Positions 13,224-19,146 of a DNA stretch of 42,068 bases are shown piece after piece. The DNA comes from a virus. Lineage: Duplodnaviria > Heunggongvirae > Uroviricota > Caudoviricetes. The notes below the pieces were generated by a model. It was not told where the DNA came from, searched no databases, and saw only the letters and a list, made by a program, of their open reading frames with translations. Position numbers and translations under genes: made by a program. Numbering within the stretch: the stretch's first letter is position 1; every line of letters starts with the position of its first letter. The stretch lies in IMG/VR virus record IMGVR_UViG_2585427763_000002, one strand, 5' to 3'.

Positions 13224-13234
13224 GGGGGGGGGGG
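13224..13234. repeat. Homopolymeric G tract (11 G)
   Basis: GGGGGGGGGGG read directly, between the terminator hairpin and the RBS (GGAGG) of the next ORF. Confidence 0.9.
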
Positions 13235-13252: not shown

Positions 13253-13468
13253 ATGAGTACGATAGCTGAGCTTGTCAGGGCTAATTTTCGTGAAGAGTTG
13301 GTGCGTTGGTATCGGTATCGTTCATCGTCCAGTTTGCCGATTGATGAGTTGTATGAGCATTCACCTGCTGCACGACGCTATCCGCGTGACCGTGTTCTTC
13401 GACGGTTGTTCAAACTCAACAATGAGTTTCAGCGCAACAGAATAATCCGGAGTCTGGATTTAAAGTAA
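13253..13468 (+). CDS. Hypothetical small protein
   Basis: 71-aa ORF preceded by GGAGG. Confidence 0.5.
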   Translation: MSTIAELVRANFREELVRWYRYRSSSSLPIDELYEHSPAARRYPRDRVLRRLFKLNNEFQRNRIIRSLDLK

Positions 13469-16732: not shown

Positions 16733-16917
16733 ACGCCACAATTCAAACGATACCAGAGCTTCTTATCCAGACACGAGGCAATCAGACCGAAGTGGCAAGG
16801 ATGCTTTCCTGCGCAAGAGGAACAGTGCTCAAGTACAACCGAGACAGCAAAGGCGAGCGTCACGTAATAGTTAACGGCGTCCTGATGGTCAAACAGGGCA
16901 AGAGGGGAAGACGATGA
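16729..16917 (+). CDS. ninH: NinH-like protein
   Basis: 62 aa; ...GNQTEVARMLSCARGTVLKY... resembles lambda NinH HTH. Confidence 0.6.
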   Translation: MNATIQTIPELLIQTRGNQTEVARMLSCARGTVLKYNRDSKGERHVIVNGVLMVKQGKRGRR

Positions 16918-17402
16918 GCATAAGAGAATTAAACCTCACCAAAGAACAGCATGAGTGGCTGAATGGCTGGCTTGAACTGTGGGGCGCATGGGTTTATTCA
17001 GGTCGTCTGGAAAAGCGCATGAGCAGCGTAATAGCGAAGTTCATGGAGAGCGTAGACCCGGGAAGAGTTATGACAAGGCCAATGTGCAATGATGATGATG
17101 GAATGTTGATTTCTCAGGTCGTCGATTCCGTCATGTACATTGACAAGAAAGCCTTTGGCATCCTCCTCAGCTACTACGCCCATGGATCTTCCAAGCACGC
17201 CATTGCATCTTACTATCATCGCGTCGCAAGACCTCGCAAGATGTTATGCCGTGGCGGCGGGCGCATTCAAAAACCATCGCTCGCAACCTGTCGACGGGAA
17301 GTTGACGAAATCCTTAATGCCTCGTTGTTTATGATTTATCCGGTTCTGGATAGTGCGTTTAAAAACCGGAAACGTGTAGAGAAAATTAAACATGTAGCAT
17401 AG
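16914..17402 (+). CDS. Q: Late-gene antiterminator Q (non-lambda Q type, phage 82/21-like size class)
   Basis: 162 aa immediately upstream of a TTGACA promoter/terminator unit and the lysis cassette. Confidence 0.75.
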   Translation: MSIRELNLTKEQHEWLNGWLELWGAWVYSGRLEKRMSSVIAKFMESVDPGRVMTRPMCNDDDGMLISQVVDSVMYIDKKAFGILLSYYAHGSSKHAIASYYHRVARPRKMLCRGGGRIQKPSLATCRREVDEILNASLFMIYPVLDSAFKNRKRVEKIKHVA

Positions 17403-17404
17403 AA

Positions 17405-17495
17405 CGTGTTGACATCATTGAGCAAATGAGCAACACTATTCACATAAGCTGCCGTTAGTGACTCTTAAGTTGCAACGGTGGCTTTTTTTGTTTGC
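17405..17495 (+). promoter_or_regulatory. Late promoter pR' with qut region and tR' terminator
   Basis: TTGACA at 17409-17414; hairpin GCCGTTAGTGACTCTTAAGTTGCAACGGTGGC followed by TTTTTTTGTTTG at 17451-17495. Confidence 0.5.
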
Positions 17496-17941
17496 ACAAC
17501 AGGTAAGAGCATTGAACCCGCAGACCTCGCGGAATTGGTGAAAGGTGCCGCGCAGTGCTCTTATCGTTGTGGTGAAGCTCAATGGCGAGCTAGCAGATAG
17601 GCGACAGTGAAAATACTAGTCATGTAGCTGACCGCCGCGCGTACTGCAATCGGCAGCGCACCGATGGAAGCCGGTTCGATTCCGGCCGCCACAACCCAAA
17701 CTGAGCCGTAGCCACTGGCTATCCTGAATTCATCAGTGATAGTTACGCTGCGGCCTTCTACATATGATCTTCGTGAAAGCGGGTGGAAGGAGGTCGCGCT
17801 AACAACCTCCTGCCGTTTTGCCCGTGCATATCGGTCACGAACAAATCTGATTACTAAACACAGTAGCCTGGATTTGTTCTATCAGTAATCGACCTTATTC
17901 CTAATTAAATAGAGCAAATCCCCTCAATGAAGGGGTAGAGC

Positions 17942-18145
17942 ATGTACCGTATGGACAAAATCAGAGAATGGTTCAGTTACAGCTTCGGAGGACTGACTGC
18001 GATGGGTGGCATTCTCTCCCTGAATGACTGGGCTGTCATCATTGGTATTCTTTGTACTGTCGGCACATTTGGCATCAACTGGTACTACAAGCGCAAAGAG
18101 CGCGAGGACAGATTGAATGGCAATGTCACCGGCACTACGAAATAG
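17942..18145 (+). CDS. Holin (pinholin-like)
   Basis: 67 aa, two hydrophobic segments and charged C-terminus; Met1 and Met4 as possible dual starts; precedes SAR endolysin. Confidence 0.7.
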
Positions 18146-18620
18146 CGTAATAGCGGCGATAAGTGGCGGGGCTATTGCTATAGCATCTGTGTTAATCACT
18201 GGACCGAGTGGTAACTATGGTCTGGAAGGTGTCAGCTACATACCATACAAAGATATTGTTGGTGTATGGACTGTATGCCACGGGCACACCGGAAAAGACA
18301 TCATGCTCGGTAAAACGTATACCGAAGCAGAATGCAAAGCCCTCCTGAATAAAGACCTTGCCACGGTCGCCAGACAAATTAACCCGTACATCAAAGTCGA
18401 TATACCGGAAACAACGCGCGGCGCTCTTTACTCATTCGTTTACAACGTGGGTGCTGGCAATTTCAGAACATCGACGCTTCTTCGCAAAATAAACCAGGGC
18501 GATATCAAAGGCGCATGTGATCAGCTACGGCGCTGGACATACGCTGGCGGTAAGCAATGGAAAGGGCTGATGACTCGCCGTGAGATTGAGCGTGAAGTCT
18601 GTTTGTGGGGGCAACAATGA
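18123..18620 (+). CDS. R: SAR endolysin (T4-lysozyme-fold muramidase, phage 21 R-like)
   Basis: N-terminal Gly/Ala-rich signal-arrest-release helix [19 protein letters not shown]; catalytic E-x8-D-x5-T motif ([17 protein letters not shown]). Confidence 0.88.
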
Positions 18621-18712
18621 GCATGATTTGCTTTTTCATGGCAGCGTTGCTCGCATTGAATGGCAACGATGCGTGGCCGTGGTTTCTGGCCGTTGGGGTG
18701 TTGATGTCATGA
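18617..18712 (+). CDS. Small hydrophobic ORF between endolysin and Rz
   Basis: 31-aa [38 protein letters not shown]-coupled to endolysin stop and overlapping Rz start. Confidence 0.3.
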
Positions 18713-19146
18713 GTCGGTTAACCGCGATTATCTCCGCTCTGATTATCTGCATCGTCGTCTGTCTGTCATGGGCGGTCAATCATTACCGTGATAACGCCAT
18801 GACCTACAAAGAGCAGCGCGATAAGGCCGCATCCACAATCGCTGACATGCAGAAGCGTCAACGTGATGTAGCAGAACTTGACGCCAGATACACAAAGGAG
18901 CTTGCTGATGCTAATGCGACTATCGAAAGTCTCCGTGCTGATGTTTCTGCTGGTCGTAAGCGCCTGCAAGTCGCCGCCACCTGTGCAAAGTCAACGACCG
19001 GAGCCAGCAGCATGGGCGATGGAGAAAGCCCAAGACTTACAGCAGATGCTGAACTCAATTATTACCGTCTCCGAAGTGGAATCGACAGGATAACCGCGCA
19101 GGTTAACTACCTGCAGGAATACATCAGGACGCAATGCCTTCGATGA
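18709..19146 (+). CDS. Rz: Rz i-spanin
   Basis: Start ATG 18709 after GGGGTG; N-terminal TM helix then coiled-coil periplasmic domain; Rz1 embedded in +1 frame. Confidence 0.8.
18914..19093 (+). CDS. Rz1: Rz1 o-spanin lipoprotein (embedded in Rz)
   Basis: [34 protein letters not shown]...: lipobox LVVSAC followed by Pro-rich segment. Confidence 0.7.

Follow-up and report, generated by a model that had tools for sequence, protein, structure and literature searches.

A hairpin in the position of lambda sdi at the Shine-Dalgarno sequence of an HP1-family holin gene with two start codons

The timing of lysis is a central fitness trait of phages, and the dual-start genes lambda S and S21 are the textbook cases of its tuning. 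In phage 21 a dual start is annotated that gives the antipinholin S21-71 and the pinholin S21-68, and Barenboim et al. are said to have described in 1999 that S21 is regulated by a stem-loop. In lambda a GGGGG Shine-Dalgarno (SD) sequence at -12 to -7 serves Met1, the start of antiholin S107, and an unusual UAAG SD sequence at -6 to -3 serves Met3, the start of holin S105. A stem-loop at -21 to -7 controls the access of ribosomes to the GGGGG sequence, a second stem-loop lies downstream within the gene (nt 31 to 47), and the lysis time of lambda can be set by the rate of holin translation alone (bioRxiv 10.1101/2025.05.14.654169). The part played by the additional positive charge at the N-termini of S107 and S21-71 has also been described (PMC9636201). 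The holin of Haemophilus phage HP1 was found experimentally to be a pinholin that works with a SAR endolysin, and the HP1 hol gene was reported to have neither a dual-start motif nor an antiholin (PMC7312051).

The window analysed here is a stretch of viral DNA of 42,068 nt. The original prediction for this window was that a hairpin sequesters the ribosome-binding site of a holin gene with two possible start codons, resembling the sdi structure and the holin/antiholin arrangement of lambda S. The locus is a new example of this known lysis-timing device in front of another holin family, PF16080. No description of a dual start or of a hairpin for this family was found in the literature, in a search whose reach ended short of key subscription papers. 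With this example the design of a hairpin and two starts is found before a third holin family, one without sequence relationship to the first two, which makes the mechanism more general. Holins of the PF16080 type are widespread in Salmonella and E. coli among P22-like and lambdoid phages (BTP1, SPN9CC, ST104 and prophages). Specialists in phage lysis are not expected to be surprised by it.

Lysis cassette and late leader

The designation of the gene as a holin gene was borne out. Its product matched PF16080 with an E value of 4e-21 (75.1 bits, against a curated cut-off of 28.8), and the gene is part of a holin / SAR endolysin / Rz-Rz1 cassette (Table 1). The hydropathy profile showed two transmembrane domains (TMDs) and a charged C-tail with 6 K/R and 3 D/E. 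In TMD1, 9 of 18 residues are G, A, S or T, and the mean hydropathy of this segment is about 1.0, compared with about 2.0 for TMD2. The endolysin matched the structures of phage 21 R (PDB 3hde) and RrrD (4zpu) with E values of about 1e-105, and the match included the N-terminal region. The SAR endolysin partner, together with the richness of TMD1 in small residues, indicates that the holin probably acts as a pinholin. The start of Rz is ambiguous, being either GTG 18580 or ATG 18709; the RefSeq annotation of E. coli 55989 takes the equivalent of 18709.

Table 1. Features of the late leader and the lysis cassette; positions are those of the window, and positions in parentheses are relative to AUG1.
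Feature	Position	Strand	Remarks
Q antiterminator gene	16914-17402		Upstream of the late promoter
Phage-21-type late promoter pR' with Q-binding elements and first terminator	17409-17493	+	Base-for-base as in phage 21 record OL657228
Lambda-type tR' terminator	17786-17820	+	Identity to lambda; inside the late leader of the holin gene
Hairpin, 5' arm CCCCU	17920-17924	+	Last stretch identical to the lambda late leader
Hairpin, loop CAAUGA	17925-17930	+	Close identity to lambda S-type phages stops inside the loop
Hairpin, 3' arm AGGGG	17931-17935	+	GGGG (17932-17935; -10 to -7) is the SD sequence of AUG1 and the counterpart of lambda GGGGG (-12 to -7)
Purine-rich spacer UAGAGC	17936-17941 (-6 to -1)	+	Candidate weak second SD sequence, at the place of lambda UAAG (-6 to -3)
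Holin gene, HP1 family (PF16080, class II), 67 codons	17942-18145	+	Profile match; two TMDs
AUG1	17942-17944	+	Start of the 67-aa form (M-Y-R-M...), predicted antiholin
Arg3 codon CGU	17948-17950	+	Extra positive charge of the long form
AUG2 (Met4)	17951-17953	+	Start of the 64-aa form (MDKIRE...), predicted active holin
SAR endolysin gene	18117-18620	+	Near-identical to phage 21 R / RrrD; overlaps the 3' end of the holin gene
Rz gene with embedded Rz1 lipoprotein gene (+1 frame)	Rz 18580-19146; Rz1 18878-19093		

The late promoter consists of a -35 element TTGACA (17409-17414), Q-binding elements (17417-17432) and a -10 element (17432-17437), and the transcription start lies near 17444. The lambda tR' terminator (of the 6S RNA), GGAGGTCGCGCTAACAACCTCCTGCCGTTTT at 17786-17820, was missed by a simple terminator scan. 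Since Q, pR' and the terminators all lie upstream, the template for holin translation is a long late mRNA that depends on Q and has a leader of about 500 nt. A pR' like that of phage 21 is thus followed by a lambda-type tR' and leader, so that the window combines Q21 and pR'21, the lambda-type tR' and leader, a holin of the HP1 family and an endolysin of the R21 type.

The closest match among E. coli genomes was a prophage of E. coli 55989 (99.4% identity). Compared with window positions 17402-17942, it has about 250 nt more between Q and the holin gene, which marks the spacer between Q and S as an indel hotspot. Positions 17639-17697 resemble the 3' part of a tRNA, with T-arm and acceptor end, and gave a partial Rfam match to tmRNA with an E value of 5e-6; ARAGORN detected no tRNA anywhere in the window. 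In phage 21 and BTP1 this site is occupied by intact genes for tRNA-Asn and tRNA-Thr, and HK75 has the tRNA-less version found in the window.

The hairpin and its counterparts in lambda and phage 21

Positions 17910-17959 read UAGAGCAAAU-CCCCU-CAAUGA-AGGGG-UAGAGC-AUG-UAC-CGU-AUG-GAC. The hairpin at 17920-17935 is formed by the pairs C17920-G17935, C17921-G17934, C17922-G17933, C17923-G17932 and U17924-A17931, i.e. by 5 bp with a loop of 6 nt. As the original prediction had it, the positions of the hairpin, of the SD sequence, of ATG 17942 and of the second in-frame ATG (17951, codon 4 of the 67-codon ORF 17942-18145) were all correct. The predicted pairing, CCCCTC-AATGA-AGGGG, stood as far as the arms are concerned, but its split into 6, 5 and 5 nt needed a small correction because C17925 has no partner. 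Folding with RNAfold gave the predicted hairpin both as the minimum free energy (MFE) structure and as the centroid, with -7.5 kcal/mol when the element was folded alone and -10.0 kcal/mol in a context of 52 nt. Six nucleotides separate the GGGG sequence from ATG 17942.

Taken alone, the hairpin is unremarkable. Compared with dinucleotide shuffles its z-score was only -0.6 to -1.7, and 46 perfect GC-rich hairpins of 5 bp occur in the window (about 1 per 915 nt), compared with 31 +/- 7 in shuffles. Rfam covariance models (cmscan, positions 17300-18200, E <= 1) gave no match over 17900-17960. A simple scan listed the site as a terminator-like structure of the minus strand, as would be expected if the element acted at the level of DNA or of the transcript, be it as a minus-strand terminator, as a hairpin for RNase processing or stabilisation, or as a binding site for a protein. 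Such a role is extremely improbable. The T tract on the minus strand is poor (ATTTGCTCTA), the number of terminator-like matches was 1 compared with 1.1 in shuffles, and the only ORF nearby on the minus strand is antisense to the holin gene. With a poor T tract, matches at the shuffle expectation and no gene to terminate, the minus-strand terminator was rejected. What homologs conserve, moreover, is a plus-strand feature, namely the inclusion of the SD sequence at a constant spacing to AUG1, and the missing Rfam match speaks in the same direction.

Comparison with lambda was made with the lambda prophage of BL21(DE3) and with HK75. Over about 235 nt (17690-17924), of which the 5' arm forms the end, the window hardly differs from the late leader of lambda (tR' to S). 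The sdi stem-loop of lambda, CCCCUUAUUGGGGG, occupies -21 to -7, and the hairpin of the window occupies -22 to -7 relative to AUG1. After the 5' arm lambda continues with CCCCUUAUUGGGGGUAAGACAUGAAGAUG and the window with CCCCUCAAUGAAGGGGUAGAGCAUGUACCGUAUG; beyond the loop, matches between the two are limited to the G run, the UA after it and CAUG (GGGGUA..CAUG). The same joint was seen in a set of 125 sequences, made up of the window, the loci already collected and matches of viral contigs to a 16-nt search pattern from the leader and 5' arm. Downstream of the shared 5' arm, about 95 loci of this set have lambda S (CCCCTTATTGGGGGTAAGACATGAAGATG) and about 27 have a holin of the HP1 type; the 3' arm, the spacer and the start codons differ with the type of holin. 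Natural variants of the allele in the window differ only by changed loop bases or an added G (CUAUGA, CAAUAA). By position the hairpin is the counterpart of lambda sdi, and at the level of the leader it is a sequence homolog. The relation to lambda is therefore closer than the resemblance originally proposed: the leader is near-identical, and the hairpin lies at the position of sdi. Divergent homologs, too, have both the hairpin and the dual start.

The predicted stabilities of the elements are similar. In windows of 49 to 52 nt the values were -10.0 kcal/mol for the window, -9.7 kcal/mol for lambda sdi and -11.4 kcal/mol for S21 of phage 21. Like lambda S, the gene has a G-run SD sequence in the 3' arm, a purine-rich spacer and two AUG codons with a basic residue between them. 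The differences concern the protein, which has 67 aa and two TMDs (class II, PF16080) instead of 107 aa and three TMDs (class I), and the details of the start region. The extension is M-Y-R, with two codons between the AUGs, compared with M-K in lambda (Met1-Lys2-Met3); the loop is CAAUGA (6 nt) compared with UUAUU (5 nt), and the spacer is UAGAGC (UAGAG at -6 to -2) compared with UAAGAC. The endolysin partner is of the SAR type, whereas lambda R is a cytoplasmic transglycosylase.

S21 resembles the holin of the window in other respects. Both are class II holins with two TMDs, of which TMD1 is weakly hydrophobic, and the N-terminus M-K-S-M-D-K-I of S21 compares with M-Y-R-M-D-K-I in the window. 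Folding placed the SD sequence GGAGG of S21 in a hairpin as well (-11.4 kcal/mol, as above), on its 3' strand; the downstream SAR endolysins are nearly identical, and the upstream pR' is of the Q21 type. Unlike these parts, the immediate leader and the hairpin sequences differ. No significant similarity was detected between the two holin proteins (BLASTP E 0.27; PF04971 19.5 bits, below the cut-off of 26), so that the holin of the window is classed as working like S21 but outside the S21 family. With HP1, which gave its name to PF16080, the window shares the Pfam family and the logic of a holin / SAR endolysin cassette; unlike HP1, the enterobacterial branch examined here almost always has the dual start and the hairpin. 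HolA of Yersinia entomophaga (preprint) was considered as a parallel and dismissed, as it is a different holin without a dual start.

Conservation of the hairpin in HP1-family holin leaders

Homologs with about 40 to 100% protein identity were collected from genomes and viral contigs and gave 69 distinct leaders. The genera sampled were Citrobacter, Raoultella, Klebsiella, Kluyvera, Serratia, Pectobacterium, Yersinia, Erwinia, Providencia, Morganella, Xenorhabdus, Arsenophonus and Vibrio. An MFE hairpin with a G-rich SD sequence in its 3' strand was present in 67 of the 69 leaders, and the end of the whole helix was 2 to 6 nt from AUG1. The arms themselves changed: 30 distinct pairs were found, e.g. 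CCCCA/UGGGG, CACUCC/GGGGUG, CACUC/GAGUG, CCCUC/GAGGG, UCCGA/UCGGA and UCCGU/ACGGA. The closest relative with a different leader, whose holin is 93% identical, has an A-U pair instead of the closing U-A pair of the window. The design is thus kept across genera with changing stem sequences.

The probability of SD pairing discriminated poorly, being 0.70 for native leaders and 0.60 and 0.58 when the upstream segment was shuffled or swapped. The region upstream is C-rich everywhere, which explains this result and means that part of the signal is compositional. The metric was therefore replaced by MFE, z-score and chimera tests and by a control set of other gene starts. Over positions -34 to -1 the mean MFE was -10.2 kcal/mol for the holin leaders and -4.0 kcal/mol for 57 other ORF starts of the window (Mann-Whitney p = 2e-20), and the mean z-score against shuffles was -2.1 for the holin leaders and -0.11 for the 57 other starts. 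In 62 of 69 cases the native hairpin was more stable than chimeras with the 5' half of another homolog, with means of -10.1 and -7.9 kcal/mol.

These values bear on the explanation that mosaic recombination brought in the 5' arm as a passenger of the lambda-like leader, and that it pairs by chance with a G-rich SD sequence, without a function for this holin. The end of close lambda identity inside the loop fits such an origin. So does the ease with which any G-rich SD sequence pairs with a run of C, as shuffled upstream segments still did, and the single hairpin is not significant at a background of about 1 per 900 nt. Nevertheless, a functionless hairpin is very unlikely, as a hairpin with other arms occupies the corresponding place in unrelated leaders, both those of holins 79 to 93% identical and those of more distant holins, the energies of the leaders are sharply unlike those of other genes, and the polymorphisms in the allele of the window fall in the loop and not in the stem. 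The placement of the hairpin on the SD sequence and its conservation in lambda and in the holin family, where it accompanies the double start, are far beyond chance.

Covariation was examined in 24 leaders of the clade with GGAGGUG, aligned on sequence alone. Here 85.6% of the cells could pair, compared with 35 to 59% with slid partners, and the covariation score was 0.175 compared with a shuffle mean of 0.101; none of 500 shuffles reached 0.175. Swaps of GC to CG and between AU, CG and UA occurred at two inner pairs, and the outer pairs were invariant because they consist of the SD sequence and its complement. Formal covariation is limited to these two inner pairs in this one clade. In the clade of Providencia and Arsenophonus covariation was weak, because two sub-clades are shifted by one column. 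RNAalifold found no consensus pairs in a global MAFFT alignment of 70 leaders; the stems are probably out of register in an alignment of this kind, and the result is not evidence against the structure.

Leaders from Candidatus Arsenophonus triatominarum and other Arsenophonus contigs included those of one symbiont genome with more than 20 copies of the holin family, several of them frameshifted or truncated. Four disrupted copies were inspected, two from this symbiont genome and two from Morganella morganii. The hairpin and an M-R-M or M-S-M start could still be recognised upstream in them, with the arms CCCUC/GAGGG or CACUC(C)/G(G)GGUG.

Double start and proposed mechanism

The two start codons were compared in 78 unique homologous proteins with an ATG pair. 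In 76 of them the extension of one or two residues contains K or R. The N-terminus was M-R-M in 37 proteins, M-x-R-M or M-x-K-M in about 35 and M-K-M in 3. Six codons (CGT, CGC, CGA, AGA, AAA and AAG) are used for the basic residue that directly precedes AUG2, and the other residue of the extension varies freely (Y, Q, H, T, K, N or A). The basic residue is therefore conserved at the level of the protein, an argument for translation from AUG1. AUG2 never varies, and the few homologs with a single start have that start exactly at its position (MDKY..., MEKY...), an argument that the short form is a holin complete in itself. Two single-start homologs had leaders without any hairpin, an anecdotal number.

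The spacer between the hairpin and AUG1 is the candidate for a second SD sequence. In UAGAGC only GAG is complementary to the anti-SD sequence, and the spacing to AUG2 is 10 nt. Purine-rich spacers before AUG1 recur among the homologs, which carry GAGG, GUGG or GAGA at this place. A downstream stem-loop within the gene, as in lambda, was sought in +1 to +89 and nothing stable or distinctive was detected there (z -0.33), in a test that also misses the known one of lambda.

The most probable reading, to which we assign a probability of about 0.7, is that the hairpin at 17920-17935 controls the translation of a dual-start holin gene in the manner of sdi, on the late, Q-antiterminated mRNA from pR', and that its stability sets the holin:antiholin ratio and thereby the time of lysis. 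With the hairpin closed, the strong SD sequence GGGG would be buried, and 30S subunits would start mainly at AUG2 by way of the weak UAGAG site and give the 64-aa holin. With the hairpin open, GGGG would steer initiation to AUG1, giving the 67-aa form with its M-Y-R extension. The additional Arg3 may hold the N-terminus and TMD1 in a cytoplasmic or membrane-inserted state and hinder the change in topology; the long form would then act as an antiholin until the membrane depolarises. From the examples of lambda S and S21, both starts are probably used, with the hairpin setting their ratio, and the same examples make opposing functions of the 67-aa and 64-aa forms probable.

A simpler explanation is a general throttle on translation, in which the hairpin masks the only functional SD sequence, lowers holin synthesis and delays lysis, only one start being functional and the other Met being a conserved residue or an unused codon. 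It would agree with the finding that the hairpin masks the only strong SD sequence, with the weakness of the candidate for AUG2 (GAG at a spacing of 10), with the control of lambda lysis time by translation rate (bioRxiv 10.1101/2025.05.14.654169), and with the existence of homologs that get by with one start and of HP1 hol, which has no dual start. Nevertheless, this explanation is rather unlikely: 76 of 78 proteins begin with M-(x)-[K/R]-M, and six codons encode the conserved basic residue, next to a residue that is free to vary. The invariance of AUG2, at which single-start homologs begin, also speaks for two functional starts, and the signatures of the starts are the same as in the experimentally proven dual starts of lambda S and S21. 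Use of both starts under control of the hairpin is thus preferred to the throttle.

More broadly, the hairpin that sequesters the SD sequence could, together with the start M-(x)-[K/R]-M, form an ancient, portable cassette shared by unrelated holin families (lambda S of class I, S21 and HP1), which is maintained by covariation in the Enterobacterales and serves as a recombination joint between late leader and lysis module. The idea of a joint comes from the lambda-type and HP1-type alleles, which share the 5' arm and have each their own 3' arm. As the helix is short and masks an SD sequence, it might also sense temperature or the physiological state and tune the antiholin:holin ratio, and with it the moment of lysis, to the conditions in the host. 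This wider proposal is doubtful and is put forward only tentatively.

For annotation, both the 67-aa and the 64-aa product should be listed. The homologous leaders provide a natural allelic series of hairpins that is easy to test. One natural allele, L238 (IMGVR_UViG_2609459845_000023, about 1441-1530), encodes a holin that is 100% identical from Met4 on, and the sequence upstream is replaced exactly at AUG2. It has no AUG1, Arg3 or hairpin, and its frame is open upstream (86-aa ORF). It may represent a fusion or a holin-only allele of natural origin.

Elsewhere in the window a homopolymer of 11 G was observed at 13224-13234, just 5' of a small ORF (13253-13468). Shuffles gave 0.05 such matches, and the run could be a slippage-prone tract.
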